Assembly (NCBI GenBank): GCA_036785375.1 | Contig: JAWMAR010000082.1 | Location: forward strand, 6,882,001 to 6,946,000 | Direction of reading: 5' to 3' | Length of the DNA stretch: 64,000 nt | From: Leucoraja ocellata | Taxonomy: Eukaryota | In this document: one piece after another, positions 1-64,000 of the stretch | Layout of the letters: every line of letters begins with the position of its first letter | Position numbering within the stretch: the stretch's first letter is position 1 | The notes under the pieces: generated by a model | The model's database searches: none | Told to the model about the DNA's origin: nothing | The model's input: only the letters and a program-made list of their open reading frames with translations | Made by a program: the position numbers and the translations under genes

Positions 1-2326
1 AAAAAGGGTCTCTGAGGGGGGAAAAAAAACAACAAACAGATCCCATGTCCACAATGCAGAACTCAAAACATTTTTCATGCTTTGTGGTTTCACGAGAAGC
101 AGTAAGCTGTTTAAAAAAAAAAATGCCTTGTCCAAATTGAACATTTGCTTGACATGATGGAAAAGTGAGTGCTATTTTCTGTTATATTGCCCTTATTCTA
201 CATTTACAAGAATATTTTTTTTTTGCTGCTCCCAACTGATTTCACAGTGGTGAACTTCGTTTATGAATTATCTGACACATCCCCTGCAATTTTTCTGACA
301 ACAGTGCTCAGTGGAAATTTCAAGGCCCTCTTTCTGACAAGTAGAAATATCAATATTTGAATAAATTGTGGATTTTAAACTTCTCACTTCGATGCACTGG
401 AGCTGGGAGACTGAATTTTTCTTTTACTGGGTCTAATCCCCTTGAGCCTAAAGAAAGAAATCTGTATGCAGCATTTCATTACAAGAGAGCTGCACTGAGT
501 GACATTTGAAGCACACATCTAAGTCGAGCTGATGAAGTTTACTTCCTTCAAACAACAAATAGCATCTTTGTATTATTTCCCCTTCTCAAGAAAAAGTGAA
601 AGCATGATGGCTAGCAAAAAACAGAAATGTTGATTCACAAATTGACAGGTCAATCTTTAAACAAATGTGTTTCTTTGGGAAAAAGTGCAGCTTTGTTCTT
701 TGCTGAGCATTTTTTTTTTGGCTGGCAGAAAAATTCCAAAGCTGATTAGAAGGAACTTGTTAGGGTCCTGTCTCAGACACGCTGACTCCACATTTTAACA
801 ACCGCGCAAACTAAACAACATAAAGATAACAAAACATTGTCATTACTTTTTATGGGTGCTGTGGATGTCAATCAATACACAGCATTTAGGAATATAAAAA
901 AACAGTGTGGTGCTGAGAAATGCATTTGATTTATTCATTGGGAAAGCAAGACAATGATTAACAGTGTAAAAATTAATTATGACTATTCTGTACCTGCTAA
1001 AGATGGGAATGTACAGATTAAATGTTTTGTCAACTGCTGGGATGTCCAGCAAATGAATGTAAAGGACGGGGTAACAAATCATAAATAAGCTTTAAAAAAC
1101 TATTGACAGTGTGGCCTGATTGTAAGCCTTATTACCTCCTCAAGTAAACCTTCTTTGACAGCACCACTTCTGCCTCTCCTGCCCTCAACCTCTTGTCTTA
1201 TCCATCGAAACCCTGATGATAGCCTGTTGGTTGGCTTGTTTCGCAGGATTCCTTCTGTAACACTGCCATAGATCTGATAGTGCCACTTAACAATAGATTG
1301 GCCTATTCCTTTTTTTTTAAGGTAAATAACCGACCCGCACAGTTTCAACAGCACAAAAACCTCAAGAGAACAGATTTTCAGCTTGTGTCTCATCTTTTGT
1401 TTATCCGCACAACTCTATACTGGCCATAAATAATTCCGCTTTAATGGGTTTCAAAATTCGGCAAATCCATAGAAACTGATCAGCTAAATCTGAGACAAAG
1501 CACTCTAAATAAAACAATTCAGTACATTTTTATATACATTACTTTATCCTACTAAAAGCAATGTTCTTTCATCTGAACTTGTTTAGCATTGGTGTTTGTG
1601 TGAGCTGTTTAGTGTTTGTGTAAACTGCTTTCTTTTAGACCGATTGCAAATCATATTATCCTGCACACAAAACCCAGCCCATCATCTATAACGAAGGCCG
1701 ACATACTCCGCCTGCTCCCTGTTTTAATTTTTAGCATGTTCTGGCGTGGTAATAATGCTCTGATGCATTTCACTCTTGACTGGATACAGTGAGATTGCTA
1801 ATCAGGATTACTTGATTCAGTCAACACTAATTTCAATAAAAGGACAAAAAAATTATCATAAATATAGAGAAAGTGCTGTGGGTAGTGACAGGTGATTAAA
1901 ATCTCATTCATTTGGAATCAGACTGATTCATGGTGGTCAGATAAGGAAAGTCTTCATATCAACAGCAGATGATTATCATCTGACTCGTTCTGAGTCATTT
2001 CTGATTGCACATGCACATGCAAATTGGTATAAAGTCGACATGAACAACACATCATCATATCAGAGGATGACCTCTTCCAGATGGGCACATTGTTCAAATT
2101 ATTTTTTTGCCTGCAAAGGGATCTGTAGTACAACTAATCCTAATTTGCCACACCAGCGGAAAGGGTAAAGACATTTTTTCAAAACCAAAACCTGTAAGTT
2201 CGAACCAAGCCACGACTTTTATATGCTGAGGGACCTGTGTGTAAATGTGTCATTGACAAGAAAGTCCCAGATTTTACCACAGATATGTGTCCACGTGAGG
2301 CTTTACATGAGCAATTGAGTCCTGCA

Positions 2327-2493
2327 GAAATGGAATAGGTGACGTTTCGGGTCGAGACTCTTCTTCAGACCCTTCTCGACCCGAAACATCACCTATTCCT
2401 TTTCTCCAGAGATGCCGTCTGACCTGCTGAGTTTCTCCAGCTTTTTGTGTCTGTCTTCGGTTTAAACCAGCATCTACACAATTCCTTCCTACA
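2327..2493. mobile_element. Penelope-derived short element with inverted 5' segment, flanked by 15-bp TSD
   Basis: Internal inverted repeat (2326-2357 vs 2374-2405). Body ...ccagagatg...ctgacctgctgagtttctccagctttttgtgtct... is shared with other copies in the window. Flanks are caattgagtcctgca (2312-2326) and caattaagtcctgca (2494-2508). Confidence 0.8.
2332..2370 (-). ncRNA. Minimal type I hammerhead ribozyme motif (Penelope pLTR type)
   Basis: Minus strand reads GU-CUGAAGA-A-GAGU-CUCG-ACCC-GAAA-C-GUC-ACC. It has the CUGANGA and GAAA core boxes, a short stem II (one A.C mismatch; GGGU/ACCC in sister copies), a palindromic ACGU in place of stem III and a GUC cleavage triplet. Confidence 0.65.
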
Positions 2494-3306
2494 CAATTAA
2501 GTCCTGCACCAAGCCTTGTCAGTCCTGAGATAAGTAGAAGAAACTCAGCCCATGCTCCAGCTCATAGCTATGAACGTGCTCCATGTTGGAATGGTAAATG
2601 TATTGACACTGATAAGATCCCATGGCCACACAACCCATTAATACCCAAGTAGAGGAACTGACTAAGATGGAAAACATTAAAAAATAACAGAAATAAATGT
2701 TCCTGACAGTTTACACAGTGTAGAAAGTGTCGTTCTCAATCATATCGCAATTGGCCAGATGTTCATTCTCTAATTTCAGTTATAGCAAGGAAAGAAGGAA
2801 TGATTGAACGGGAAGATTAAAATAACACAAATACAGTAAATACAGTGATATCTTCCTGTGGGAAAAGAAAAAAAAAGAAATGAAGTATGTAATCCTTTTT
2901 CACATACTTTGTTTAGGTTAATATTGGGAAAAGCCAAACAAAGGCTTCTTTCCTAGCTTCTTCATGAGATAACCATCCAGATATGAGTAAAGCTGCCATT
3001 AGACACAACCCATCACATTCATCTAGTAAAGTGTTTTACCCATCTTTCCAGCAATAATTAGCTTTAAGTGATTTCAAGATTTTTCAATGTCCAAATATAT
3101 TTGATTATTTTCTGTTGAGGAGATATCTGTCATCACTTTTAATTTATTGTTCAGCATTTTCAACTAGTATTTTTGGCTTAATCTCAATGAACGTGGATTT
3201 CGCTTTTTTTCCCCATTTACTTTCTTAGATGTCTCTCAATAGTCAAATGAGGAGAAATTAGCATGTGACTTTTTTTACTCTTTAACTCTCTGATGATAGC
3301 AATTCT

Positions 3307-4154
3307 TACGAAGGTAAGCTAGCCAAGAATGTAAAGGAGGATAGTAAAAGCTTTAGGTGTGTGAAGAGGAAAGAAATTAGTTAAGACCAAAGTTGGACCC
3401 TTGGAGACTGAAAAAGGCAAATTTATTATTTGGGAACAAGGAAATGGCAGATGAGTTGAACAGGTACTTTGGATCAGTCTTCACTAAGGAAGACACAAAC
3501 AATCTTCCTAATGTACTAGTGGCCAGAGGATCTGGGGTGACGGAGGAACTGAAGGAAATCCACATTAGGCAGGAAATGGTGTTGGGTAGACTGATGGGAC
3601 AGAAGGCTGATAAATCCCCAGGTCCCCTAATTTTAGGAAGGACATTCTTGCTATCGAGGGAGTGCAGCGTACGAGACAAGGTTAATTCCCAGAATGACGG
3701 GACTCTCATATGCTGAGAGAATGGGGCGGCTGGGCTTGTACACTCTGGAATTCAGGATGAGAGCAGATCTTACTTAAACATATAAGATTATTAACGGTTT
3801 GGACATGCTAGAGGCAGAAAACATGTTCCCGATGTTGGGGGAGCCCTGAACCAGGGGCTACAGTTTGAGAATAAGGGGTAAGCCATTTCGAACAGAGTTG
3901 AGGAAACACTTTTTCACACAGAGAGTTGTGAGTCTGTGGAATTCTCTGTCTCAGAGGGCCATGGAGGCTGGTTCTCTGGATACTTTCAAGAGAGAGCTAG
4001 ATGGGGCTCTTAAATATAGCGAGGTCAGGGGATATGGGGAGAAGGCAGGAATGGGTTATTGATTGGGGATGATCAGCCATGATCACATTGAATGGCGGTG
4101 CTGGCTCGAAGGGCCGAATGGCCTACTCCTGCACCTATTGTCTTTTGTTTATTG
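3307..4154 (+). mobile_element. CR1-clade (HER1-like) LINE fragment, internally deleted
   Basis: ORF2 remnants NKEMADELNRYFGSVFTKED...KADKSPGP, then the C-terminal block and RKHFFTQRVVSLWNSL. Typical 3' tail ggctcgaagggccgaatggcctactcctgcacctattg. Confidence 0.9.
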
Positions 4155-4287
4155 AGTCTGAAGAATGTTCAGACCTGAAACAATATCTGGTCCCTTTCTC
4201 CAGAGATGTTTCCTGACCGGCTGAGTTGCTCCAGCACTTTGTGTCTATCTCTTGTGCTCACCATCACCTGCAGTTCCTTCCAACACA
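4155..4287 (+). mobile_element. Penelope-derived short element (degenerate hammerhead)
   Basis: agtCTGAAGAatgttcagacctGAAAC... followed by the family body tctccagagatg...gctgagttgctccagcactttgtgtct...gcagttccttccaacaca. Confidence 0.75.
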
Positions 4288-4326
4288 AACACTTTGAGAC
4301 CCTGTATATTCAAAGTGGAGAACATA

Positions 4327-5780
4327 CAGTGCCCTCCATAATGTTTGGGACAAAGACCCATAATTTATTTATTTGCCTCTGTACTCCACAATTTGGGATT
4401 TGTAAAAAAAAAAAAATCTCATGTGGTTAAAGTGCACATTGTCAGATTTTAATAAAGGCTATTTTTGTACATTTTGGTTTCACCATGTAGAAATTACAGC
4501 AGTGTTAATACATAGTCCCCCCCCCCCCCCCCCCCCCCCCCCCATTTCAGGGCACCATAATGTTTGGGACACATGGCATCACAGGCGTTTGTAATTGCTC
4601 AGGTGTGTTTAATTGCCTCCGTAATGCAGGTATAAGAGAGCTCTCAGCACCTAATCTTTCCTCCAGTCTATCCATCACCTTTGGAAACTTTTATTGCTAT
4701 TTATCAACATGAGGAACAAAGTTGTGCCAATGAAAGTTAAAGCTATTATGAGATTGAGAAACAAGAATAAAACTCTTAAAGACATCAGCCAAACCCCAGG
4801 CTTACCAAAATCAACTGTTTGGAACATCATTAAGAAGAAACTGGTGAGCTTACTAATTAGACGCAAAAATAGGATGGCCAGGTTACAGTTTGCCAAGAAG
4901 TACTTAAAAAGAGAAGCCACAGTTCTGGAAAAAGGTTTTTTGGACAGATGGGATGAAGATTAATTTATATCAGAGTGATGGCAAGAGCAAAGTATGGAGG
5001 AGAGAAGGAACTGCCCAAGATCCAAAGCATACCACCTCATCTGTGAAACACGGTGGTGGGGGGTGTTATGGCCTGGGCATGTATGGCGGCTGAAGGTACT
5101 GGCTCATTTATCCTCATTGATGATACAACTGCTGTTGGTATCAGCATAATAAATTCTGAAGTGTATAGACACCTTATCTGCTCAAGTTCAAACAAATGCC
5201 TCAAAACTCATTGGCCGGCAGTTCATTCTACAGCAAGACAATGATCCCAAACATACTGCTAAAGCAACAAGGGAGTTTTTAAAAGCTAAAACATGGTCTA
5301 TTCGTGAGTGGCCAAGTCAATCACCTGATCTGAACCCAATTGAGCATGCATTTTATATGCTGTAGAAAAAACTGAAGGGGACTAGCCCCCAAAACAAGCA
5401 TAAGCTAAAGATGGCTGCAGTACAGGCCTGGCAGGGTATCACCAGAGAAGACACCCAGCAACTGGTGATGTCCATGAATCGCAGACTTCAAGCAATGATG
5501 GTATGCAGATATGCAACAAAATACTAAACATGACTACTTTCATTTACATGACATTCTGTGTCCCAAACATTATGGTGCCCTAAAATGGGGGGACTTTGTA
5601 TAAACACTGATGTAATTTTTACATGGTGAAACCAAAATGTATAGAAATACCCTTTATTAATATCTGACAATGTGTACTTTAACCACATGTGATTTTTTCT
5701 ATTACAAATCTCAAATTGTGGAGTACAGAGGCAAATAGATAAATGACGGGTCTTTGTCCCAAACATTATGGAGGGCACTG
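4327..5780 (+). mobile_element. Tc1/mariner DNA transposon, IR/DR type, non-functional
   Basis: TA|CAGTGCCCTCC...GGAGGGCACTG|TA. Terminal inverted repeats of ~225-245 bp (4327-4573, ~5557-5780), each with outer and inner copies of CCATAATGTTTGGGACA. Confidence 0.95.
4709..5527 (+). pseudogene. Degenerate DD34E Tc1 transposase
   Basis: HTH remnant ISQTPGLPKSTVWNIIKK, then VKHGGG-VMAWACMAA and QQDNDPKH...[12 protein letters not shown] (34 residues between D and E), ending YATKY*. It carries frameshifts, an in-frame TAG (~5363) and an internal deletion. Confidence 0.92.
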
Positions 5781-6004
5781 TATGCCTTTTTTTTCCTTTT
5801 GCAGTGACACAGTCTACCCTCGTTATTATGGGCCTCTTTATAATGGATTTCAGTTAAACAGCAGACAATATCTGTCATAACCTCACTTTCAATAGTGGGA
5901 TCAGAGAAGGATATTTTCCATGGGATATGATCAGTGGTCCCGGAATGCATAGGGACCACATAATCCCAGAGTCAAAGAAACAGAATGGATCCTGAACTAA
6001 AATT

Positions 6005-6100
6005 AGGAAGATCTGGAAACGCTCAGCAGGTTAGGCAGTGTGTTTGGAAGGGGAAACGGGATTAACGTTTAAATCCAATGTCCTTTCACCCTGAACTCTG
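6005..6100 (-). mobile_element. Old Penelope-type short element remnant
   Basis: ctggaaacgctcagcaggttaggcagtgtgtttgga...ttaacgttt resembles the family body (ctggagtaactcagcaggtcaggcagcatctctgga...gacgttt) but is highly diverged. Confidence 0.5.
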
Positions 6101-6714
6101 GGTGGGCAGTTGGTTGAGGGAGTCTCACTTAGAGCAGAACAGGGTTTCTTCATCCACCGCACCAATGCTCTGAACCTCCCACTTTGCTCTCAATCTCCGA
6201 ATGCGGGATTCAGCAACAGGGGCAGAGGTTATTGCCGTTCCCCAGCTGTGCTGGACAAGGTGGTGCTGGGCAGCCTTCTGGGGCTGCTGTGCTCGGTGTG
6301 GTGAGGTGGGACGTACCACTGGGAAGGGGCTCCAGGATTCTGACTCCTCTCCTGGGCAGTGAAGTCAATGGGGCTCAAAAACCCTTGTTCGTTTATAGTG
6401 GACAATCGGCAATAACGGACATCAACCCCTCCCCCCCATTATAGTCTCTTTGAATGACGGTTATCTGTATATAAATATTCAATGTCTACTGCTATCAACC
6501 TCTGCCTATTCCATCCGGCTCACCTACCTTTCCTTATTTGTCATGGTATACATGTGTAACCAATTTGAATTGTATTGTTGAATCTAGATGATGAAAGCAT
6601 ATTAAAGATATTAGGGATCCCAGCATAAAACTCAGATTTTTCCTTTACCACAACAACATTTTCCTACAAGGACCAAGTACTAGGATATGGAAAGTGAAAC
6701 AAATATGACAAACT

Positions 6715-10339: not shown

Positions 10340-10856
10340 TTCTGTCACTTCACTGAAAAGATCATATTTAATGTTTGAACATGGACAGGGAGTCTCATGA
10401 GATTATTTCACTCTGGGCCATTTTTGTCAGATTCAATCCTATTCTCACCCAATAATGAATCTTGAAAAAATTCCAATACCAGGATTGGAAAGAAAGAAGG
10501 AGCCATGGACTCCTTTCCTATCCCACCAGCACCAATGGGAATGGTTGTGGCCCAGATTAAGATCGCATTCCAATAATTCACTGAGGAACATATTCAACTT
10601 GGTGCGAGGATTTTTCCCGAACGATCAGTTTTACTTTATATAAATGAATTTACGACGTCATTTGCAAATTACAGAAAGGTTTGTCTGCTAATTTTGTCCT
10701 CTCCAAGAAAATCAGGTTGACAGGTTCATTCTTGTACAATATCAATGCCATTTTGGTAATAGTTGGTGTCGAGAACATACAGATTGGTTGCCCTGTTTTT
10801 CAAGTGCAGCTCCACATTTTCTGGAGTCCCATTTATGCATGACGAATGAACAGTTT

Positions 10857-11221
10857 TAGAAACATAGAAACATAGAAAATAGGTGCAGGAGTAGGCCATT
10901 CGGCCCTTCGAACCTGCACCGCCATTCAATATGATCATGGCTGATCATCCAACTCAGTATCCTGTACCTGCCTTTTCTCCATACCCCCTGATCCCTTTAG
11001 CCACAAGGGCCACATCTAACTCCCTCTTAAATATAGCCAATGAACTGGCCTCAACTATCGTCTATGGCAGAGAATTCCACAGATTCACCACTCTCTGTGT
11101 GAAAAATGTTTTTCTCATCTCAGTACTAAAAGATTTCCCCTTTATCCTTAAACTGTGACCCCTGGTTCTGGACTTCCCCAACATCATGAACAATCTTCCT
11201 GCATCTAGCCTGTCCAACCCC
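10857..11221 (-). mobile_element. CR1 LINE 3' end
   Basis: ORF 11062..11250 reads GLDRLDAGRLF...SRTRGHSLRIKGK...FFTQRVVNLWNSLP. (AGAAACAT)n tail at 10858-10877. Confidence 0.92.
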
Positions 11222-12130: not shown

Positions 12131-12306
12131 CATCTATGTAAACATGTCCTGCCGAACAAACCTTTACAGTTAGCTAAGACATGTGCCTCTACTTCTATTG
12201 ACTAGGCCGCAATCCCAGGCCTAGTAGCCAATGGAGATATCTGCAGGAGCCTTGAATGGTTCCAAATATCTCTTGCTAAAAATCCCTCAACTATAAATAA
12301 AAAAAG

Positions 12307-12421
12307 GGGAGAAAGCAGGAGAATGGGGATAGGAGAGAGAGATAGATCACCCATGATTGAATGGTGGAGTTGACTTGATGGGCCGAATGGCCTAATTCTA
12401 CTCCTATTCCTTATAACCCAT
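12307..12421 (+). mobile_element. CR1 LINE 3' tail fragment
   Basis: ggggagaaagcaggagaatggg...tgatgggccgaatggcctaattctactcctatt. Confidence 0.75.
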
Positions 12422-12790: not shown

Positions 12791-12880
12791 TATGAAAATG
12801 AATACACTTAGGAATACTCAAAATGCACCCAACCAAACTCAGTTAATTCAAGCAATGGAAGTAAACACCTTGTAGATCCT

Positions 12881-12981
12881 AGGTAGACACAAAATGCTGG
12901 AGTAACTCAGTGGGTGAAGCAGCATCTCTGGAGAGAAGGAATGGACAAGGTATCGGGTTGAGACCCTTCTTCAGAATGATC
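12881..12981 (-). mobile_element. Penelope-derived short element with 10-bp TSD
   Basis: agacacaaaatgctggagtaactcag...gggttgagacccttcttcaga, flanked by tgtagatcct (12871-12880 and 12982-12991). Confidence 0.82.
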
Positions 12982-13619
12982 TGTAGATCCTCCTCTTCTC
13001 CAGCTAAAAGCATAGCACCGTGTCTTGTGACAGCAGTGTCTATAGAACGTGGATTTTGGCAAAGAACAGGTGCCTTTATTCTCATTTCAATTTTTTATTA
13101 CATTTGGTTTCATAGTTTAATTTTCCATGCAGTTTTAAAATGGAATAATATAAAGTGGTAAACATGTAGGCTTTAGTCTCCCAGGTATTTGGGCAACCAG
13201 CTAGAACTGGTTCATTGAAGTCAGGTGACTCAAAAGTGCTGAGACCTAGGAAACAAAGTCTCTGGGGTTGATGCAAAAACAGCATGTTTTCAGCTCAGCA
13301 TCCTATCACCGTAATGATCACAATCTCCAGACTCTGACGAAGTCACGGTGACAGTGATAATATTAAATAAACCAATACAGAACTATAGGACGACAGGTAT
13401 CGCAGGTTATGCGTTGTATCTGTGACATGTGGGAGTTGATACAAACCATTATGACCCTTGGCCACTACACATCCAGTAATTGTGTACAGCTCAAAGAACT
13501 TTGAGTCAGAGTGAATTGTCTGGAGTTTTAAGCACTGCAATGCATCAGGAAGAGGAAGACTACATGGATACTGTCCTAAAGGCACGCATACATCCTAGTT
13601 TTAATCTTGTTTTTTGCCT

Positions 13620-13880
13620 TTAGAAAGGAGATGAGGAGGAATTTCTTTAGATAAAGGGTGGTGAATCTGTGGAATGCATTTCCACAGACAGCCATGGAGG
13701 CCATGTCAATGGATAGTTTTAAGGTGGAGATTGATTACATTCTTGATAGTGAGGGTGTCAGGTGATGTGGAGAAGGCAAGAGAATGAGGTTGAGAGGGAA
13801 GGATAGATTAGCCATGATTGAATGATGGATTAAACTTGATGGGCCAAATGGCCTAATTCTGCTCCTGGAACTTATAAACC
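13620..13880 (+). mobile_element. CR1 LINE 3' end
   Basis: gagatgaggaggaatttcttt...gtggtgaatctgtggaat and tail gatgggccaaatggcctaattctgctcct. Confidence 0.85.
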
Positions 13881-14581
13881 TATAAATATTAGTTAACTGC
13901 TCAGTCAGGTGGAAGGAAGTGAGGCTGGTTTGGAAATCCAGACAATTGTGGAGCACCAGACTCAGCCCTCAATTCTCTGAAAGATACGAGGTTCTTGCAG
14001 CCTGTGTGATAACAACACAGACTGCAGAGTTGATGAGTAAACTGATCAAAACCTCATGATGTAGGGAGCCTTTCAGGTTTGGAGAATTATAAAGAATTAA
14101 GTAATAAAAGGGGACAGAATAGTCGGGTGGGTGAGATGGGGACAGCGTTCTCTGTAGCTGCAAACAAAAAGTCCCAAACACTGTGTTGCCCAACCATCAT
14201 CTCCTGTGGGCTGAAGAGAAACCCACAGTGGGTGGAGAAAGATCTCAACGTTGTGGTTCACATGGGAACCAATGACTTGGACAGAACAGTAGAAGGTTCT
14301 GCTGAAGGGAAGTTGAGCAGTTGAGTTCCAAATATAAAGGAACCACAAAAGGTGTTTGGATTATCACCTTGGCTATGGGCAAGATGGCACAAGGTAAATA
14401 AGATCGGAGAAATGAATTTGCACCTCAGTTAGGTATGAGAGAAATGGCTTCCAATTCATGGACACAGGTACCAGTGTTGGAAAATAGAGAGATATTCTGA
14501 TGGGACACGATTTACTTTAATCAGGCTGCTGCAAGCCTCCCGGTGAATCTGCTAGGCTGGAGATAAAAAAAACAACATAAT

Positions 14582-14652: not shown

Positions 14653-15673
14653 CTCTCTAAGTCTGTGTATGTATGCATGATTTGGGGCAAGGGTGGTAGG
14701 ATGGAGATTCTGGTAAGGGAAGTTTAAAAAGTTAAAGGGAAAGGAATGGATTCAGGGGTAACATTACTGCAGTCTATCTGGAAAGAATGGTTTTTCTAAA
14801 CAAAAGAATATACATCCAGTTAGAGTCACAGCAGAGAAAATGGTAAAACAAAAAGACAAACAAAAGGCTCTTTATCTGAATGCAGACAGCTTTAGTAACA
14901 AGATAAGTGAATTAACGGTGCAAATAGAAATAAATGTGCATGATCTAATAGCCATGAGCTATGCGGTTGGAAAGTGAGTAAATCTGGGAATTAAATATTC
15001 CAGGAAACTAGCATTTAGAAGAGAGGCAAGATGGATAAGGTATTGAGACTTTCATAATAATAAAGAATGAGGTAAATGCAGTAAAGAGGAGGGATCATTG
15101 CTTTGAAAATCAAGAAGTGCATTCATCCGAGTGCATCTAAGAAATAGCAAAGGGGGAAAAAAAATTAGGATTTATATATCGGCCGGCAAAACATTTGGGG
15201 CAGTAATATGGGGCACTGCATCAATAAAAAAATATATATAGAGGTGCATGAAACAAGAGGAACACAAAATGAATGGAAGTCTTTCATCCACATTAAAATT
15301 GGGGAAATCAAATGCAGTAATAGTCTAGAAAAAGAATTCATGGAGAATATTCTCGATCAATATGTTGAGGCAACAATAAGGGGAAAGGGTATTTTAGATC
15401 TAGTATTGTGTAACGAGAAAGGGTTAATTGATGTTCTGTTATTATATGGGTCTTTAGGGAATAATGATCGCAATACCGTATAAAGTAATATAAAAGGATG
15501 AAAGTGATTTAGTTCAAACTGAACCTAGTATCTTAAGTCTGAATAAACTTCACAACTAAGGGTTATGAAAGTGACAAACTACCTTAAAAAGTAAAATGTT
15601 TTATAACATTATAAAAAAGTAGTTAGAGTTAACGTGGGTCCCTTACAAAATTAAATTGGGAGAAATTAAGGGA

Positions 15674-15751
15674 AGATAGACATAAAAAGCAGGACAGGCA
15701 GCATCTCTGGAGAGAAGGGTTGGGTGACGTTTTGGGTCAAGACCCTTCTTA
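15674..15751 (-). mobile_element. Penelope-derived short element nested in old CR1
   Basis: agacataaaaagc...aggcagcatctctggagagaaggg...ggtgacgttttgggtcaagacccttctt. No clear TSD. Confidence 0.75.
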
Positions 15752-16555
15752 ACATGGAAGAGGGAAATAAATTTAAACAATGTTTTGATCGTTTCTTCTG
15801 AGAAGACATGGGAATATCTCACACAAACAAAATTTCTGGAATGATTGAGAAGCTCAATAAAAGTGCATCAGAACAAAATAACTTTTGACCGAATAAAGGT
15901 ACTGAAAGGGAGCCCGATTTCAAAGGCTTTGAAGGAGGTGGCTATAGATGAAGCACCAGTTGTCACTTTCCAAAATTACATTGAACTGCTACAAAAGACT
16001 GGAAGGCAGAAAGTGTAACCAATATGTCAATAGTTTTAGGAAGCAAGGTTGAGAGAAAACAGGGAAGAATAAAGCAGTCAGCTTTACATCAGTAGGAGGG
16101 AAAATGTTAAAAAGATGTTTATAAGGAAGTGGTAGCAGAGTACTTGAAAAATAGAAATGGGATTTATGAAAATAAAATTATATGTGTCAAACATACGTTT
16201 TTTGAGGTTATAACCAGGTGTTTCAATAAAGGCAATACATCTATGTTATGTGTTTGAATTTTCAGGGGGTATTTAATAAACTGCCACATGTGAGATTATT
16301 AAATAAAATTAGAGTGCTCAGTATAGGCGATCATATCCTGCAAAAGGCTGATAATCAGTTAATGGACAGAAAATAACAGTGCATGAAACAGTACAGCACA
16401 GAAACAGGCTGTTCAGCCCACAATGTCTGTGCCGAATATGATTGCAAGCAAATCAATAAATTGCTTTTGTATTGGAAACCAGTGACTACTGGAGTCCCAC
16501 AAGGATTGATTCCCCTTGATTGAGTACCCCACTTTTCATAGTCTATTTCAATGAA

Positions 16556-16646
16556 GATAGGCACAAAATGCTGGAGTAACTCAGCAGGCAGGCAGCATCT
16601 CTGGATAGAAGGACAGGGTGACCTTTCATGTCAAGACCCTTCTTCA
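16556..16646 (-). mobile_element. Penelope-derived short element with 9-bp TSD, nested in CR1 RT
   Basis: Family body flanked by ttcaatgaa (16547-16555, 16643-16651). Removing it restores tatttcaatgaattggat (YFNELD, matching the CR1 RT YINDLD motif). Confidence 0.82.
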
Positions 16647-17257
16647 ATGAATTGGATTGAGAGTAATATATCTAAGGTATTGATGATACGAATTTAGAGG
16701 AAAAAGTAGTCCGAGGAAAATGCAAAAAAGCTTCCAGTACTATAGATAATCAAAGTAAATTGAAAAGGCACGGAGAAATGCAAGGTCATCCATTTCAGTA
16801 GCAAAATAGAAAAATAGTTTTTTTTTCATGTGATTGAATGGTGTTGATGTTCAGAGGGTCCACGAATCTCGCGTACACGAATCACCGTGTTAGCATGTAG
16901 ATACAGTAAACCGCTTGGAAATCAAAAGTTGTGTTGGTCTATATTGCAAAAGCTTTCGAGCATTAAAGTAAATACGTCTTGCTCCAATTACACAGGGGCC
17001 TGCCAAAACCACATCTGGAATATTACGTGCAGATCTGATCTCTGTACCTGAGGAAGTTTATACTTGCAAGAATGGGAGTGCAGCAAAGGTTCACCAAATT
17101 GACTCCTGGTATGGCGAGTTGGTTGTATAAAGATAAATTAAGCAGGCTGTGTCTATATAGTCTCTTGAGTTCTGGAGCAGGAAAGGTGATCTCATTGAAG
17201 TAGATAAAATTCCCAAAGGGCTTGATGGAGTAGATGCAGAGCTGCTGTTTCCCCTTA

Positions 17258-17364
17258 AAAAATGGACACAAACTGCGGGAGTGACTCAACATGTCCGGCA
17301 GCATTTCTGGAGAACATGGATCTTTTGGGTCGGGACCCTTCTTAAGACTTCTTCTTTGGGATCC
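17258..17364 (-). mobile_element. Penelope-derived short element with 9-bp TSD, nested in CR1
   Basis: gacacaaactgcgggagtgactca...gggtcgggacccttctt, flanked by ttcccctta (17249-17257, 17365-17373). Confidence 0.75.
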
Positions 17365-18129
17365 TTCCCCTTACTGGGCTGTCTAAAAATGAGATATCGT
17401 CTTCCCAAAGTAGGAGTCAGAGATGATTCAGAGAGATTCCTTCACCCAGAGGGTAGTGATGAATCTTTGAAATTCTCTAACCTAAAAATGCTGTGGAAGC
17501 TCGACTGCTGAGTGTATTCAAGATAGAGTCTTAATTATCGATAGTAAGAGAACCATGAGATGTATGGTTAAAGCAGGAAAGTGGCCCAGAGGTAAAAGAT
17601 CAGTGGATGGAAAGGCTGTGTGGGCACCAGGGTCTAAACGTCCTCCTCTGGCTTTCACTTCTTAGTTAAGTAAATTGAGATGTTGTTCACTGCAGATGCT
17701 TTTCTGTGTATTTCAAGCATAATGATAAAATTCCACTTTGCTGCTGGATTCTACGAGAAGGCAGATGTCAGATCACAGTTAGGAAACGGCTGGAAGAAAG
17801 TGGGTGGCAGGTTCAGTGCCTTCACATTTATACACATATACGGGAATCTCAAACTTGGTGGCACTTAACACAGCCAAATGCCTCCAAGTCCACCTGGAAC
17901 TGTTAGCATTTACCTGCACTATTCATGACATTATTATTTTGTGCTGATGCACAATATAAGGTGGTAATAGAGCGTAATATACTGAAAATGAAAATGTTCC
18001 CTATTACATAAAATATTTTAAGTAGTGCTGCTTACATTCTAAAACTGATGTAAAATAAATGATATATAAAAATCACATTGTTATGGGTGTGAATCATCAG
18101 GAATTAGGCACATTCCCTTTCCTTCTTGC

Positions 18130-18452: not shown

Positions 18453-19544
18453 CTCAATGTGGAACCACAAAAAAAAAAAAAAAAAAAAATCTCACTGTTG
18501 CTAGCAATCCTTATCCTGTTGATTATTATGGCACAAACCAAGTTGAATTCAGCCTGCTGCCCAGATTCTCTCACCTGCCCACATTTCCCTGGGGTGAAAA
18601 TGGAAGGTCAAACAATCGGCCTCCCTTGCACGAGACACCTTGTAGGTGAGAAGTGAGGCCTCAGTTGTCAGTGGGCTTCAGATGGTGAATGCTGGTGTCA
18701 TGCCCCACAAGACCCCGACTGTCCTTGATAGGAGGCAAGTCTAAAGGCTTTGTCTCCTGTCAAAGACCCGTAGAAACTACAGAGTCAAATAAATAAAATA
18801 AATAATACAATCTTTAAAAAAGTAAAAATTACAATGAATCAGAACGAAGAAATAGTGGGAAGCGGTGAAATAAAAGTTGAGTCCAGTAATGGAACGGAGA
18901 GGCAGCATTTGCTCATCTGCACATCCCAGACTTTCTACAGGTCTGGAATGTACTTACCTAGGAGCAGTGGAATTCCTGCAGTTCACCATGGAACTATTAT
19001 CCACAGCCTGTTCGTTTCTGCTCAATGACTTGTTTACCAAGAAAGATTACTAAATAAAATGCCAGCTTAAAAAAGATGGAAAAATGAAGTTATTCGACAT
19101 CCCTTTTGATTGCTTCAACGTCCCATTTGCCAACAGCAATGAAAGCAATGAATGCAATGAACAGTTTGTCATGCCAAGCAGAATCCAGCTCAGAAATGAA
19201 ATCGGTCAAAACCTAGCCATCTACCTAAGATGACTATACTAGAAGTATCCTGGACAGTAATGTTTCTGAATACTATTCATTCAAAATGCTGCCGCTCACA
19301 TTCTCAGCATCACAGAGAAAAGAAAGATTTATAAACTACCTATAGTGGCCGTTCAGGAAGTCCCACACTAATTACCTTGTTCTTTCTCTGTATTTTCCAA
19401 GTTTATCTCCCTTTTCTGCTAAATGAATCCATCTCAGCCTAACTTAGCAACTTCCTTTAAATAAACCTCCTTTCTTCTGAGAGTGGATCACGTGAATGTT
19501 ATTTTTCTCATCATCCACTCTTCTGTTGATGGCCAGGGCATCTT

Positions 19545-19849
19545 CATAAGTTCATAAGTGATAGGAGCAGAATTAGGCCATGTGGCCCATCAAGTCTACT
19601 CCGCCATTCAATCATGGCTGATCTATCTCTTCATCCTAACCCCATTCTCCTGCCTTCTCCCCATAACCCTGGACACCTGTACTAATCAAGAATCTATCTA
19701 TCTCTGCCTTCTGTGGCAATGAACTCTACAGATTCACCACCGTCTGACTAAAGAAATCCTTCCTCATCTCCTTCCTAAAGGGACGCCCTTTAATTCTGAT
19801 GCTATCACCTCTAGTTCTAGATTCTCTCCACATCCACTCTACCCAAGCC
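19545..19849 (-). mobile_element. CR1 LINE 3' end
   Basis: cataagttcataagtgataggagcagaattaggcc tail and acagattcaccaccgtctgactaaagaaat (reverse of FFSQTVVNL). Confidence 0.85.
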
Positions 19850-23831: not shown

Positions 23832-24122
23832 GGGTGGCACAGTGGTGCAGCAGTAGAGTTGCTGCCTCACAGCGCCAGAGACCCAGGTTCGATCCTGAGT
23901 ACGGGTGCTGTCTGTATGGAGTGACCTGCGTGGGTTTTCTCCGAGATCTTCGATTTCCTCCCACACTCCAAAGGAATACAGGTTTGTAAGATAATTGGAT
24001 TGGTACAAATTGGTATAAATTTTCCCAAGTGTGTGTAGGATAGTGTGCGGGGATCACTGGCCGGCGGGGACTTAGTGGGCTGAAGGGCCTGTTTACGCGC
24101 TGTATCTCTAATCTAAACTAAA
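23832..24122 (+). mobile_element. HE1-like V-SINE (tRNA-derived)
   Basis: Pol III A box (tggtgcagcagt) and B box GGTTCGATCC (23886-23895), central gcgtgggttttctcc...ttcctcccacactccaaa V-domain, CR1-like tail gggctgaagggcctgttt...tgtatctctaatctaaactaaa. Confidence 0.9.
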
Positions 24123-40437: not shown

Positions 40438-40854
<417 letters not shown>

Positions 40855-40879: not shown

Positions 40880-41800
<921 letters not shown>

Positions 41801-48896: not shown

Positions 48897-49400
48897 ATAG
48901 AACACATAGAAACATAGAACGTAGAACATTTGGCCCTTCGTGCCCGCACCGCCATTCATTGTGATTATGGCTGATCATCCACAATCAGTAACCCGTGCCC
49001 GCCTTCTCCCCATATCCCTTTATCCCGCTAGCCCCTAGAGCTCTATCTAACTCTCTTTTAAATTCATCCAGTGAATTGGCCTCTACTGCCTTCTGTGGCA
49101 GAGAAATTTTCAACTCTCTGGGTGAAAAAGTTTTTTTCTCATCTCAGTTTTAAATGGCCTTCCCTTTATTCTTAGACCGTGGCCACTGGTTTTGGATTCC
49201 CCCAACATTAGGAACATTTTCCGGTCCTTTTATAATTTTAATTTTCTATTAAGATAGCCTCTCATCCTTCTGAATTCCAATGAATACAAGCCCAGACTTT
49301 CCAATCTTTCATCATATGACAGTCCCGCCAACCCGGGGATTAACCTCGTGAACCTACGTCCACTCCCTTGATAGCAAGGATGTCCTTCCTCAAATTAGGA
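48897..49400 (-). mobile_element. CR1 LINE 3' end
   Basis: catagaaacatagaac tail. Reverse strand shows cctaatttgaggaaggacatccttgcta (PNLRKDILA) and the FFTQRV region. Confidence 0.9.
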
Positions 49401-53038: not shown

Positions 53039-53246
53039 TATCTGCAGTAATATCTCTTGAATAGCCTGGGACCTGTAGTTGGTGAGCACAATTCATAGGT
53101 GCTGTTGGAGCTAGTAGAGAATTATCAATATAGTTTCCTATGCCAGTGCAATGAGCTATACTTACCAGCTGCTAAATTCTCAGTGTTTAGCAAGGACAAG
53201 ACAAGGCATTCATCTTTTTTAAAATGGATGAACCAAATACCTTTTT

Positions 53247-53612
53247 CGCTTGGGCAGCTTACTACTTGGGCAGTGGTATGAATATTGATTGCTCTCACTT
53301 CAGGTAGCCCTGGCATTCCCTCTCTCTCTATCCCTACCCCACCCAAGCCACACTAGTGTCTGATTTTCACCCAACAAACAGCTTACAATGACCTGTTTGC
53401 TTTATCATCGTTACTTTTTTGCATATCTTTCATTCGTTGTTCTTTATCTCTTCAGATCGTCTATATCTCTCGTTTCCCTTATCCCTAACCAGTCTGAAGA
53501 TGGGTATTGACGCAAAACATCACCCTTTCCTTCTCTCCAGAGATGCTGCTTGTCCAGCTGTGTTACTCCAGCTCTTTGGTTTAAACCAGCATCGACAGTT
53601 CCTTCTTACACA
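53247..53612 (+). mobile_element. Penelope-like element 3' end: ORF terminus + pLTR with decayed hammerhead
   Basis: cgcttgggcagctta...agtggtatgaatattgattgctctcacttcaggTAG (RLGSL...SGMNIDCSHFR*, resembling the L.tL.P.GLN end of GIY-YIG domains). A pyrimidine-rich UTR follows, then agtCTGAAGAtgggtattgacgcaAAACATC and the short-element body. Confidence 0.75.
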
Positions 53613-54989
53613 CTTTTAGAATCCATTTACATTTGTGCAACACATCCGATATAATTATACCTTTTTAATTTTTCATTTCACCTCTGGCTATGATCTGTCT
53701 TTTAAAAATATTTTTGTATTTTGTTTAATACCACATTTTAATCACCAATTTTTAGTTTATTAAATAAACAAAATCTGTATATTTAATCTGTGTCTGTTAC
53801 AATTTTCACGGTAATATGTTTTTCCTATCTCAAAGATCTGTTTCACTGAGAAATATATTTATTGTCACAAGGTGTTATGAAGTAACCATTAAAGGAGAAT
53901 CACCAGCGTGTAGATATTGGCCTTAGACAGATTCAAACGTAAGCCTTGAGCTTCCTTTTGCTACAAAAAGAGCCTTGAGAAACAGATGCAGCTTCAATGC
54001 AAATAGGTTCTGGGGTTCGGATGGTTTCATGGGGAGAGGGAGATGCTTGGATAGAGGCAGTAGTGTATGGTGAAGCTAACGAGAGGGGTCAGCCTGACCC
54101 ATCAACAGCCCATGTTGTTATCAAGAGAAACCAAAGTAGACCAAGAACAGGGCAGGAGTGGCGAATAGTTGGTGACCAAATTTCTTGAATTGGGATTTTG
54201 ATTAACATATTTAACACACCTAACCCTTGACCTTTGGCAGGTGCGATGGTCACTTGAAAGCTTTGAATGTAACAGCATTGCGCTTCTGAGATCACATACC
54301 CTGGACCATGTGTTGACAGCCTGCAACTGATATTTAATTTTAACTGATGTAAAAGCAGATGCCTTAACCTCCCTTCTGAAGTAGTTTTACTCTCTATAAA
54401 AACACAATCATTGTTGTCTGACCTGTTGTGTATTTTCAGCTTCTTTTTGTTTAAATTTAATATTTCCAGCTTCTGTGTTTTATTTTTCCAAAGTGGAAAC
54501 AGCATAACCATCAAATAAAACAGAATATTAGTTTTAGTGTTAAACCAGGAACACTTGTGTCATCCATTAAATTACCGACTATCATTTTTCTAAAGAAATG
54601 GTAATAAATTTCAGATGTTTTGGGCTTGATATTACACCACAATATATAACTCGTGCTGGTTTTTGATCAGGCTGGGATTAACATGCTAAGAATAGAAAAG
54701 CCACCTGTGGCAGGAAAGCACTTTATCAAGGGTGGTGTTAAAACCACTTTGTCTTAATAATGCCAAGTGCAAGTGACATTTCTACTAAGCAATACCACGC
54801 TTTATTTCAGGATCGTTTAACACATGTACAAAGACAAAGGAGAATTGAATTACTGAATTATTTTACTTTAAAAAAAATCAACTTAAAGATAGTGAAACAG
54901 ATATAATCATATTTGACACACGTGAACTTTCTTCTTATTGTAATGGAAAATTCCAAATAGTTCTCCCTTTTATCCGAATTTTAATTTTT

Positions 54990-55717
54990 GTACAGCCCAT
55001 CACACAAATCAGCCATTCCTCCCAATGACTCCACCTACACTCCACACGGCCTCGGGAAAGCAGCCAAAACAAGCAAGGGCCATTACACCCCCGTCATTCC
55101 TTCTTCTTCCTCCTATCGAGCAAAAGATACAAAAGCTTGAAAGCACATATGAACAGATTCAGGAACAGGTTCTTCCATGCAGTCATCAGACTACTGAATA
55201 GTTCTCTCATCAGCTAAGGATGTTGTCCCAGACTGGTGAATCTCTGGAACTCTCTGCCATAGAGGGTAGTTGAGGCCAGTTCATTGGCTATATTTAAGAG
55301 GGAGTTAGATGTGGCCCTTGTGGCTAAGGGGATCAGGGGGTATGGAGAGAAGGCAGGTACGGGATACTGAGTTGGATGATCAGCCATGATCATATTGAAT
55401 GACGGTGCAGGCTCGAAGGGCCGAAGGGCCGAATGGCCTACTCCTGCACCTAATTTCTATGTTTCTATGTTTCTATGTTTCTATGTCCCAATCCTCCAAG
55501 CTACTTCAATGCAACCTTTTCACCTTTTTTTTTAAATCTGCACTTTTCTGTAACTTTAATGCCATAACTTTGAACAATATGATTTGCACTCTGATATTTT
55601 TCTCTTTGCACTATCTTATGTAATTATGTATGGCGTGGTTGTACTCATGCATAGTATAATTTGACCGGCTAGTTTTTTCTGTATCTCTGTTCATGTGACA
55701 AAATAAACCAATACCAA
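54990..55717 (+). mobile_element. Rex1/Babar-type LINE 3' fragment, interrupted by a CR1 insertion
   Basis: cagcccatcacacaaatc...cctcgggaaagcagcc...agatacaaaagcttgaaagca...agattcaggaacaggttcttc (RYKSLKA..RFRNRFF), similar to the reverse of the 61845 copy. Confidence 0.7.
55231..55483 (+). mobile_element. 5'-truncated CR1 3' end with 7-bp TSD
   Basis: gtgaatctctggaactctctgcc...ggcctactcctgcacc + (TTTCTATG)4. Flanks tgtccca at 55224-55230 and 55484-55490. Confidence 0.9.
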
Positions 55718-55859: not shown

Positions 55860-56162
55860 CAGCGTGGGTAGTTGCTAACTTACAGCTCTTGCAGCGCCAG
55901 AGACCCGGGTTCAATCCTATGGGTGCTGTCTATACAGAGTTTGTACGTTCTCTCATTGACCGCGTGGGTTTTCTCAGAGATCTTTGGTTTCCTCCCACAC
56001 TCCAAAGACGTACACGTTTGTCGGTTAATTGGCTTGGTATTGTTGTAAATTGTCTCTAGCGTGTGTAGGGTAGTGTTAATGCACAGGGATTGCTGGTTGA
56101 TGCGGACTCGGTGGACCGAAGGGCCTGTTTCCGTGCTGTCTCTCTAAACAAAACTAAAATAA
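55860..56162 (+). mobile_element. HE1-like V-SINE inserted in an older Rex1-like fragment
   Basis: cagcgccagagacccgGGTTCAATCC, V-domain and ccgaagggcctgtttccgtgctg tail. The flanks (ggcaggaggtacagaaacctgaag / gtcagaaacagctacttt) read as contiguous Rex1 sequence. Confidence 0.85.
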
Positions 56163-57798: not shown

Positions 57799-58070
57799 TT
57801 ATTATCATGTGTACCAAGGTACAGTGAGATGCATTTTTATACAGATCAGTAAGATTATGGCCATACATAAGTACAATCCCCAGTTGAGCACATAATACAT
57901 AGAAACAGCCCACTGAGTCCATATGTGATAGTCAGCAGGTTTTGGGATCATTTCACTGTCCCAAATGCAGGACGGCTCGATTGTAATCATGTATCATCTT
58001 TCCGCTGACTGGTTAGCATGCAACAAAAGCGTTTCACTGTACCTCGGTACACGTGACAATAAACTAAACT
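57799..58070. mobile_element. Two oppositely oriented Rex1/Babar-type 3' tails
   Basis: 57799-57832 is the reverse complement (5 mismatches in 34 nt) of 58029-58062. The right copy ends aataaactaaact like the 61845 element. Confidence 0.7.
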
Positions 58071-61000: not shown

Positions 61001-61844
61001 ACTAGACCTTACCAATCCCACCCCCTCCCCTGCATTGTATTGCCCCTTAACTAACCTGAGGTCAAGCTTTGATTATGTGTTGTAAGGCACTCCTGTTAAC
61101 CTTTGGAGTACTGCATTTCCATCTTGACGTGAACACCATGCGATTTTATCTGTCATTTTGACTAGTATAAAACAAAATAAGTAGTTCATCTATTTCTTAG
61201 GTCTACTGCATGCTTGAGAGGAAGATGAACAATCTATCCCACATCCGACACTGAAGCTCTGTACCTGCCTAGTTGGCTCATTCTTAGGGTTCTGATTTAT
61301 TGTCCGCAGAACATGAATGGCTGAGATTCACAGTGAAGGATCTGCAGGTACAAACTTGAATTGCAACCTTTGCATGGTATGATATGCATGATTCCCTGAG
61401 AATATTAACATTTTCAAAAGAATAACTGGTAAGAATGATTCCTTTAATAAATAAATGCCTGAAACTCAATGCAAGCAAACTTGCACAACCAAGATGTAAA
61501 TATGTATGTCTAAGAGCCTCTGATTAGAAATGGGCAACAGCTCAAAGCTGAGGGGCACAATCTGCCAAAACCATGGCTATCTCTCCCTGAGCCAATGTTA
61601 GACGCGCAGGAAAGTTCTGTGGCAGGCAAAAGCCTCATGTAAGACATGAAACAGCGTCCTTTGGACTATTCTGGGTAGTGTGTGAAGCATGCTATAACAA
61701 CGAGTTCCACTTATTGGTTTGAGAACTGAGTGGAATGATGCACCAGACCAGAAACCCAGTGTGGGGATTGCTGCTTATTCACATGTGCAAGACTGTCCCC
61801 AGCACCCAGCACTATGTGTTTTCTCCCTCGGTCCCCCAACAACA

Positions 61845-62630
61845 TTTAGTTTAGTTTATTGTCATGTGTACCGAGGTACAGCGAAAATATTTGTTTTGGG
61901 TGCTGTCCAGTCAGTGGAAAGACTACACATGATTAGAATTGAGCCATCCACAGTGTACAGCTACAGGATAAAGGAAATGATGTTTAGTGCAAGATAAAGT
62001 CCAGTAAAGTTAGATTAATGATAGTCTCCGTGTCTCCAATGAGGTAGATGGTAGCTCAGCCTCGCTCATTTTTATTGATGGTTCAGATGCCTGATAATAG
62101 CTGGGAAGAAACAGTTTTGAATCTGGAGGTAAATGGTTTCACACTTCTAATCCTCTTGCCTAATGGAGAGGGAAGAAGAGGGAGTGACTTGATTATGCTG
62201 GTGGCCTTGCCGAGGCAGCGGAAGTGCTGATGGTGTCTACGGAAGGGAGGTTAGTTTGTGTGATGGTCTGGGCTGCGTTCACAATTCTCTGCAATTATTG
62301 CGGTCTTGGATGGAGTTGTTCCCAAATCATGTTGTGATGCACCCCAATAAAATGCTTTCTACAGCGCATCTGTAAATGTTGGTGAGACTTGTAGGGGACA
62401 TGCCAAACATCCTGAGCCTTCTAAGGAAGTACAGGCGTTGGTGTGCTTTCTTGGCAATTGTTTCAATATGGCTAATCTAGGACACATTGTTGGTGATATT
62501 TACTCTTAGGTGCTTAAAGCTTTCAACAATCTCTACTTCGGCACATTCAATGTAAGTGTACTGGTTTGCTTCCTGATGTCGATCACTACAGTATCTCCTT
62601 TGTCTTGTTGACATTGAGAGATAGGTTGTT
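61845..62630 (-). mobile_element. Rex1/Babar-type LINE 3' part
   Basis: Minus strand encodes AKKAHQRLYFLRRLRMFGMSPTSLTNIYRCAVESILLGCIT...QRIVNAAQTITQTNLPS. (TTTAG)n tail at 61845-61857. Confidence 0.85.
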
Positions 62631-62744
62631 ATATTGACACCAGGTAACAAGGTTTACATTCCACCTTGCAGGTTTCAGACTGGTAGGCTATATGATGCAC
62701 TGTCTCATCACTGCCCAGAGTCCCAAGACAACTGCCCTCCCTCA

Positions 62745-62990
62745 AGGGCCTGTCCCACTTGGCGATTTTTTCGGCGACTGTCCGCATCATTGACTGACGT
62801 ATCCGGTCACCGATAGAGTCGCGGCGTGACGCTGCGTGATGACGTATTGATACGCCATGTCTCCTCAGGCGTCGCAACATTTTTTTTGTCGCTGCTGGAT
62901 TTTTAAATCTTCAAAATCTTTTGGCGACCCTGATACGACAGTCAATGATGCTGGCAGTCGCCGAAAAAATTGTCAAGTGGGACGGGCCCT
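62745..62990. mobile_element. MITE, PIF/Harbinger-like
   Basis: 246 bp, non-coding. Imperfect TIRs of ~68 bp start AGGGCCTGTCCCACTTGGCGATTTTTTCGGCGACTG. The 3-bp flanks are TCA and TTA. Confidence 0.82.
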
Positions 62991-63010
62991 TTACCTCCTT
63001 CACTCCCATT

Positions 63011-63316
63011 GGCAGCACAGTGGCGCAGCGGTAGAGTTGCTGCCTTCCAGCGCCAGAGATCCAGGTTCGATCCTGACTATGGGTGCCGTTTGTATAGAGT
63101 TTGTACATTCTCCCTGTGACCACGTGGACTTTCTCCCAGGCGGTGCTTCGGCTTTAATTTCCATATTCCAAAGAGGTGCAGGTTTGTAGGTTAATTGGCA
63201 TCTGTCAAATTTCCCCTAGTACGTAGGATAGGATAGGACTAGTGTACAGGTGATCGCTGGTTGGCTCTGACTCGGTGAGGTATCCTTCCACGATGTATCT
63301 CTAAAACTAAAACAAA
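63011..63316 (+). mobile_element. HE1-like V-SINE
   Basis: ggcagcacagTGGCGCAGCGGtagagttgctgcc, GGTTCGATCC B box, V-domain, tgtatctctaaaactaaaac tail. Confidence 0.9.
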
Positions 63317-63518
63317 TAAGACCCAGTTTTGTACAGACTGGTGACTCATCCAGCTACAATGTTTCACTGACCAGAGACTGGATACTTCTGGTGTGAAATC
63401 TACCTCAGATATTAACTGGCAATGATAGCAGCAGTAGTTAAAGGTCAACAGTCAGCTAATGTAATGATGTACAAATATAAAATACTCAATGTCATTGCTC
63501 TAAAGTCCATGTGGATAT

Positions 63519-63855
63519 CAGGTGTGAACTAGATTGCTTTTGGCTTCAGTGCTAGCTATCTGGGCATTCTATGTTCCTACATGAAGGATGACAATTTGAG
63601 CAATGTACTTGAGTAAGTAATAGCAATGCCTGGAGCAGTTTTCGAGCAAAGAGTCGATACATTCAGGAATTAACACAAAATAATGGAGGGGATCCTTGGG
63701 GGTGTGGGGATGTAATAATTAATATTACATTATTCTGATCTTTTGATGAGAGTTCAAGATAGAACAATTTTATTTTCATCGGGAGGTTTTTTCATCCTGT
63801 AACATTATCAAGCACTTTTGAAACAGGTGTGAACCAGATTGCTTTTGGCTTCAGT
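63519..63855 (+). repeat. 32-bp direct repeat pair, 305 bp apart
   Basis: caggtgtgaactagattgcttttggcttcagt (63519-63550) and caggtgtgaaccagattgcttttggcttcagt (63824-63855), 1 mismatch. Confidence 0.9.
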
Positions 63856-63967
63856 TGGATTCAACAAAATAAAACATGGTCGCATTGTTCAAATAAGAGT
63901 TTAAACGTAATCATAATCACATTTCAATCAGTGATATATATTTCTCCTCAGTGAATAGTTCTTATAA

Positions 63968-64000
63968 AGACACAAAATGCTGGAGTAACTCAGCAGGTCA
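63968..64000 (-). mobile_element. Penelope-derived short element (cut by window edge)
   Basis: agacacaaaatgctggagtaactcagcaggtca, same terminus as the 12881 copy. Confidence 0.75.

Follow-up and report, generated by a model that had tools for sequence, protein, structure and literature searches.

Short hammerhead-bearing repeats in the skate Leucoraja ocellata as probable by-products of an autonomous Penelope-like element

Described relatives and the copies in the window

Penelope-like elements (PLEs) that bear an endonuclease (EN+), in particular those of the Neptune clade, have been described as carrying a hammerhead ribozyme on the coding strand close to the 3' end, an optional tail of about 40 nt, an inverted 5' copy, target-site duplications (TSDs) of about 8-15 bp and a recurrent pattern at the C-terminus of the endonuclease (PMC8557442; PMC3846280). 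We found the same features among nine short repeat loci in a stretch of 64,000 nucleotides from Leucoraja ocellata (assembly GCA_036785375.1, contig JAWMAR010000082.1, positions 6,882,001 to 6,946,000, forward strand; hereafter the window). The copies are most probably by-products of an autonomous PLE. For the more specific reading, in which they are dead-on-arrival insertions of the pseudo-long terminal repeat (pLTR) of an endonuclease-bearing and probably Neptune-type PLE, with the short copies arising by run-off, the chances appear about even. Truncation sites are variable in the described Neptune-clade elements, whereas the present copies mostly start at nearly one point.

The ribozyme itself resembles the minimal type I hammerheads known from metazoan PLEs (PMC4209133), with which it shares both conserved boxes, an extra base before stem II, the G10.1-C11.1 pair and, in its putative ancestral form, a palindromic 15.2-16.2 without loop 3. 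Those motifs, too, are mostly single and dispersed, with some close together on opposite strands, and the single ones, which make up the majority, are regarded as probably truncated PLEs (PMC4209133). Stem II is 4 bp and stem I 2 bp long in the present copies, as opposed to 7-8 and 4-5 bp in the Schistosoma families; Drosophila virilis also has a 2-bp stem I (PMC4209133). No shark or skate terms occur in the searched supplementary files of that study.

Three other systems are close enough to be compared. The Poseidon element PAc of Anolis carolinensis (PMC11167929) likewise has two classes of 3' ends bounding a tail, priming on both target strands and insertion of RNA that the hammerhead has not cut, but it belongs to another clade, and the excerpted text does not discuss fixed 5' ends of short genomic copies. 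Metazoan non-LTR retrozymes (LTR, long terminal repeat; PMC7229834; bioRxiv 10.64898/2026.07.22.740005) are non-coding and pLTR-related, carry a type I hammerhead and leave dispersed monomers with TSDs longer than 4 bp. However, what characterizes retrozymes is a tandem arrangement of units a few hundred bp long, together with canonical hammerheads and circular RNA, whereas the copies described here form no tandems in the window, have a minimal hammerhead and end away from the cleavage site. Finally, MRC1 and other non-autonomous Chlamys PLEs share their 3' end with an autonomous PLE, as our short copies appear to do, but form their own pLTRs and head-to-tail copies, and most Chlamys elements are without canonical hammerheads (PMC8557442).

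The nine loci were recovered from the window (about 39% GC) by self-BLAST and a profile search, at the positions given by the first-pass annotation, which had been made from the sequence alone and had read them as an independent family of tiny, non-coding, Penelope-derived ribozyme elements. Eight loci, including two arms at the 2312 locus, match the copy profile at E<=2e-7, values that are optimistic because the profile was made from these very copies without the one at 6005. That divergent copy matches at E=0.022, and the best match in the reversed-window control has E=1.8. Copies are 79-91% identical to their majority sequence, and most are 87-167 bp long. An older, decayed tenth relative of the family body was seen by profile search at 54412-54443 (+; E=0.41), also delimited as 54412-54474, and is left out of all counts.

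Hammerhead module and coding remnant

The minimal hammerhead layout proposed in the first-pass annotation is supported by the majority sequence, in which CUGAAGA and an extra A are followed by a 4-bp stem II with a closing G-C pair, then by GAAA, two spacer bases and UC. It so contains the minimal type I elements (CUGANGA, GAAA and UH in order, an extra base after A9 and a G10.1-C11.1 pair). While the boxes, stem II and GAAA of the consensus proposed there are present, its CG at stem III is found in only two of eight copies; the others have CA (three), GG, GA and CC (one each), giving a strict majority of CA. From the decay of CpG we infer that the ancestor had a palindromic CG at 15.2-16.2, without loop 3. 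Helix I is 2 bp long, and both boxes plus the cleavage triplet are intact in one of the eight aligned copies, the inverted arm at 2327-2370. The layout supports assignment of the module, at the level of sequence, to the minimal type I hammerheads of the PLE kind.

The hammerhead stems pair in 86% of cells, compared with 14-40% in slid controls. Stem II covariation, on which the first-pass annotation had made its reading depend, is absent, with 0/7 stem pairs altered on both sides, although this test is weak with eight neutrally decaying copies. Rfam, also proposed there, gave one chance small nucleolar RNA match and no hammerhead across the whole window at E<=5, and a plain two-box pattern was uninformative (6 matches, 6.2 expected). 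Two of ten single-copy folds beat their shuffles (z=-3.1 and -2.1), neither of them in the active hammerhead fold. Departures from the majority are as frequent in the core (9/82 cells) as in the body (22/179; p=0.84); the catalytic positions thus vary like the body, and nothing suggests selection on inserted copies.

The copy at 53247 is the longest, extending 253 nt upstream of the box, and the stretch upstream of the box occurs once in the window by profile search. Across one frameshift, its first 67 bases (53241-53307, +) fit the pattern with which the GIY-YIG domain ends in the four Neptune sequences aligned in Fig. S2 of PMC8557442. They likely represent the C-terminus of a Neptune-type endonuclease, judging from a pattern test and a by-eye comparison with the published alignment. 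The Neptune-type C-terminal pattern has a single match in the window (both strands, six frames), located at the 5' end of this copy on the hammerhead strand and followed ten codons later by a stop (53305-53307). The expectation is 0.2 matches per resampled window and 0.0005 per given 300-nt stretch, figures that make for an optimistic p-value because the pattern consists of residue classes, one of which was relaxed after the sequence had been seen.

A pyrimidine-rich spacer of 186 nt lies between the remnant's stop and the hammerhead, the box being 187 nt past the stop codon; most of it (53308-53490, +) is a putative 3' untranslated region or upstream pLTR, with a single occurrence in the window. 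It leads into the remainder of this copy at 53491-53613 (+; 3' end about +136, where the first base of the CUGAAGA box is +1, a convention used throughout), which consists of the hammerhead module with its decayed core (53494-53521), the body and the tail. Open reading frame (ORF) end, spacer and hammerhead thus lie on one strand in the order reported for canonical PLEs. The Penelope origin that had been proposed is supported, while this remnant contradicts the description of the family as wholly non-coding.

The polarity fixed by this remnant also bears on whether the copies could be an RNA polymerase III (Pol III) short interspersed element (SINE) read on the opposite strand. The antisense majority sequence does contain A-box-like (2 mismatches) and B-box-like (1 mismatch) motifs 30-60 nt apart, but 6.5% of 1500 shuffles match as well, so the motifs are not significant. 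Moreover, no transfer RNA (tRNA) gene was found, the copies reach well past the supposed start on its upstream side, and the polarity given by the ORF remnant is the opposite one. We consider this origin barely credible.

Copy ends and the origin of the short insertions

Four flanking repeats listed in the first-pass annotation are borne out, namely 2312/2494 (15 bp, 1 mismatch), 12871/12982 (10 bp), 16547/16643 (9 bp) and 17249/17365 (9 bp); among 2979 random flank pairs, <=0.23% have an exact match of the length seen in each. Another probable TSD, the fifth, 5991/6090 (8 bp, p~0.01), had been missed. At 4155, 15674 and 53247 the flanking repeats are no better than chance by the same test, which covered eight loci and left out 63968 at the window edge. 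TSDs of 8-15 bp are therefore present at 5/8 tested loci, supporting insertion as separate TSD-making events. For comparison, rotifer PLEs have TSDs of 8-10 bp, and their inverted 5' copies have TSDs of 9-10 bp (PMC3846280).

The 2312 locus had been described as one element flanked by repeats. Its TSD is real, but two arms in inverted orientation lie inside it. The left TSD (2312-2326, +) ends in bases similar to the template at the site where the left arm is primed, and at this microhomology the inverted arm begins (2327-2370, -; box positions -2 to +42), with the sole intact hammerhead core at 2368 down to 2341. The direct arm (2374-2493, +) runs from +12 to about +131, with tail, up to the right TSD (2494-2508, +). 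The arms are 93% identical over their overlap and are joined via a short antisense repeat, a 10-nt junction (2367-2376, +) that overlaps both arms and whose sequence is, on direct reading, antisense to box positions +5 to +14. Inverted 5' copies are among the features listed for PLEs (PMC8557442; PMC3846280).

The remaining copies are simpler. The copy at 4155-4288 (+; -3 to about +134) has a tail, has no TSD beyond chance and adjoins the end of another repeat. Copies without the tail are found at 12871-12991 (-; 101-bp insert 12881-12981, -7 to about +94, 10-bp TSD), 15671-15750 (-; about +4 to +97, 14 nt being deleted internally, and no TSD beyond chance), 16547-16651 (-; 87-bp insert 16556-16642, about +2/+6 to +92/+96, with a 9-bp TSD that overlaps both element ends) and 17249-17373 (-; 107-bp insert 17258-17364, -3 to about +95, 9-bp TSD). 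At 63964-64000 (-) the window edge leaves the tailless 3' end of a further copy (about +90 to +93). The divergent copy at 5991-6097 (-) has a 91-bp insert (5999-6089, about +3 to +93) between direct repeats of 8 bp (5991-5998 and 6090-6097). Between the 5' end of the 17258 copy and its TSD lie 15 extra bases (17350-17364). A spliced first exon as the origin of such extra 5' bases was rejected, as these bases differ among copies.

Taken together, the 5' ends fall at -3, -3, -2, between -7 and -1, about +2 to +6, +3, +4, +12 and -253. Seven of the nine informative ends are thus found in the interval from 7 nt before to 6 nt after the first base of the CUGAAGA box, as had been claimed for most copies, and such a concentration within 14 nt has p=0.007 if ends are uniform over 70 nt and p=3e-6 over 310 nt. 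Random ends, which the first-pass annotation would have expected of ordinary truncated insertions, are therefore not seen. Identity with the ORF-linked copy extends exactly 3 nt upstream of the box in two copies and 2 nt in one. As to the 3' ends, six copies stop at about +90 to +97 and three at about +131 to +136, which makes two classes separated by about 40 nt. This spacing matches the optional 3' tail of PLEs (30-40 bp; PMC8557442) and the two reverse transcriptase (RT) start sites reported for Poseidon (PMC11167929).

The cleavage site (+29) coincides with none of the nine 5' ends; the templates therefore did not arise by hammerhead cleavage, which accords with cleavage being dispensable in vitro (PMC11167929). 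This counts against the copies being monomers of a non-LTR retrozyme, freed by hammerhead cleavage and copied from circular RNA. Such elements are pLTR-derived, leave dispersed monomers and are present in the one chondrichthyan genome sampled (bioRxiv 10.64898/2026.07.22.740005). Nevertheless, no tandem array of the unit exists in the 64 kb, where the only three arrays are of simple sequence; none of the copies is circularly permuted, and helix I has 2 bp as opposed to the canonical 6 bp. A retrozyme origin is thus highly improbable.

Under the explanation that we favor, the autonomous element's own RT/GIY-YIG protein would make all of these insertions from its own messenger RNA (mRNA). Since Penelope transcription starts inside the upstream pLTR (PMC2377424), a priming signal should lie near both transcript ends, and a pLTR-ORF-pLTR transcript would carry it twice. 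Priming in the downstream pLTR would yield ordinary 5'-truncated insertions that reach the ORF, such as the 53247 copy, while priming in the upstream pLTR would yield a run-off complementary DNA (cDNA) of 90-140 nt, halting about 3 nt before the CUGAAGA box, where the RNA would have its 5' end. Because run-off cDNA is bounded by the RNA 5' end, the short copies would share both ends without a separate master. The 2312 locus could result from two such cDNAs that were primed on opposite strands and then joined through microhomology. Biochemical work in vitro has shown that the anole Poseidon protein nicks either target strand, extends both and has two internal start sites for cDNA, one at each limit of the tail, that hammerhead cleavage is not needed, and that 5'-shortened templates give shorter products (PMC11167929). 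Within the window, support comes from the TSDs, the two classes of 3' ends, the inverted two-arm insertion, the ORF-end-like linkage and the neutral decay. Run-off would be the simplest account that requires no second element, and we put the run-off step itself at even odds.

Several points weigh against this explanation, in addition to the relaxed pattern noted above. The ORF remnant is short (about 22 codons) and frameshifted. It matches no Pfam family, and a comparison with one protein database found no candidate sharing three words, a weak result given the query length. EN+ PLEs of the Neptune clade are recognized by an ORF with RT and C-terminal GIY-YIG endonuclease, a partial-tandem pLTR-ORF-pLTR master and a Cys-rich RT-EN linker; no full-length element, RT or complete endonuclease lies within the window. 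The five near-box ends defined by a TSD or junction give, on their own, p=0.054 over 70 nt (0.00016 over 310 nt), and in two copies without a TSD the end is the point at which similarity to one reference copy stops. The 5' ends scatter over about 13 nt, three of them inside the box. The mechanism is, moreover, borrowed by analogy from a Poseidon-clade element. In D. virilis, the Penelope intron starts 46 nt past the start site and is 75 nt long (PMC2377424), and the hammerhead begins at the intron's end (PMC4209133), which places the RNA 5' end there far (>100 nt) upstream of the box. The CAG just before the box in our ORF-linked copy could equally be a splice acceptor.

That CAG, with the pyrimidine run preceding it (53470-53493, +), lies directly before the box as a candidate splice acceptor like the end of the D. 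virilis pLTR intron, and it overlaps an initiator-like motif. Transcription initiators follow the pattern YYANWYY. The ORF-linked copy fits this pattern 3 nt upstream of the box, at the base where two copies break from it, as do 1.3% of window positions; together with the clustered 5' ends, this counts in favor of run-off. A scan of bacterial and archaeal genomes (possible contaminating host contigs) for longer copies with the hammerhead pattern gave 0 matches, and a Pfam scan of 57 sequences, 56 of them from the 143 listed ORFs, gave no RT or GIY-YIG match.

The main rival to run-off keeps the same autonomous PLE but has the short copies primed at the 3' pLTR of the mRNA and truncated at a hot spot, where the RT stalls or the cDNA folds back past the hammerhead. 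Heavy 5' truncation is reported for PLE insertions (PMC8557442), and single minimal hammerheads have been attributed to truncated PLEs (PMC4209133). In the fold predicted to be the most stable, CUGAAGA of the majority sequence is buried by pairing of about -3 to +11 with +35 to +55, and the gain in stability of the cDNA fold ends about 4-6 nt upstream of the box. However, this fold is not more stable than shuffles (z=+0.76 for RNA, +0.15 for cDNA), and none of the 11 pairs of the alternative hairpin shows compensatory change. Polymerases also usually pause when entering a structure and not when leaving it. We regard a stall as possible but rather unlikely.

Another alternative, that of the first-pass annotation, is a separate non-autonomous family consisting of pLTRs only, with its own master copies, mobilized in trans. 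Both ends are clustered, even the divergent 6005 copy keeps the same two ends, and eight of nine loci are without ORF sequence, although one of these is cut by the window edge. There is also precedent, as pLTRs suffice for trans mobilization in a rotifer (PMC3846280), and non-autonomous PLE derivatives exist in the form of MRC1 (PMC8557442) and retrozymes. In contrast, the short copies cannot be told from the ORF-linked one by any diagnostic site, shared minor alleles being scattered (n=9 sequences), the core is no better conserved than the body, and the Pol III promoter motifs of the antisense majority sequence are not significant. Six copies are without the tail, while the Poseidon assay required RNA beyond the RT start sites (PMC11167929); by analogy, the protein-binding signal is probably missing from these small copies. 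The evidence hence does not support an independent SINE- or retrozyme-like family, given the ORF-linked module and the absence of tandems, cleavage-site ends, a significant Pol III promoter, diagnostic sites and selection on the core, and we consider a pLTR-only family unlikely. A related scenario, in which some run-off pLTR copies kept an internal promoter and the priming signal and became their own masters, would create a dispersed, non-tandem, ribozyme-bearing partner of 90-140 nt with a defined 5' end; we find this similarly doubtful.

Surrounding sequence and implications

The window is an animal locus, as an ORF at 40438-40854 (-) contains an exon of an EBF/COE transcription factor gene (Pfam COE1_DBD, E=1.6e-29, residues 80-134). 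A probable Tc1/mariner-type DNA transposon occupies 4323-5784, with inverted repeats at 4323-4573 and 5557-5784 that are 84% identical, and an ORF inside it (4655-4960) gave weak, below-cut-off matches to the transposase helix-turn-helix (E=0.003). Self-BLAST also retrieved a second dispersed family (3626-4171, 10847-11220, 12306-12419, 13617-13889, 19540-19834, 48898-49399 and 55230-55475), whose members we take to resemble the 3' ends of CR1-type long interspersed elements, and the PLE copy at 4155 adjoins the end of one of them. A third family of about 270 bp (23837-24124, 55888-56160 and 63015-63277) presumably resembles a tRNA-derived V-SINE. Further inverted repeat pairs lie at 62744-62806 and 62929-62991 (89%) and at 57970-58070 and 61848-61949 (82%). 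The 140 N at 35323-35462 are an assembly gap.

The element kind, its ribozyme and its terminal structures are already published (see also PMC6765202 and PMC8969392). A search by title and abstract, in open-licence texts only, retrieved no description of this family or of a fixed 5' end at the hammerhead, which is weak evidence of novelty, and the chondrichthyan retrozyme families listed with bioRxiv 10.64898/2026.07.22.740005 may include the present sequence. As dispersed single PLE hammerheads already number in the thousands in vertebrate genomes (PMC4209133), the family itself adds little, and its useful part is the common 5' end.

The shared start of most copies may mark where the RNA of the element begins. 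Regeneration of the upstream pLTR in PLEs has been described as having no obvious mechanism (PMC2377424), and the steps that follow internal priming are still unvalidated (PMC11167929). Should run-off from the upstream pLTR be the source of the short copies, both the RNA start and the priming sites would be mapped by thousands of genomic fossils, and the process would offer a simple source for both direct and inverted pLTRs. If, in addition, some run-off copies became masters, a PLE would have produced a SINE-like element that has no Pol III head and, possibly, the seed of a retrozyme.

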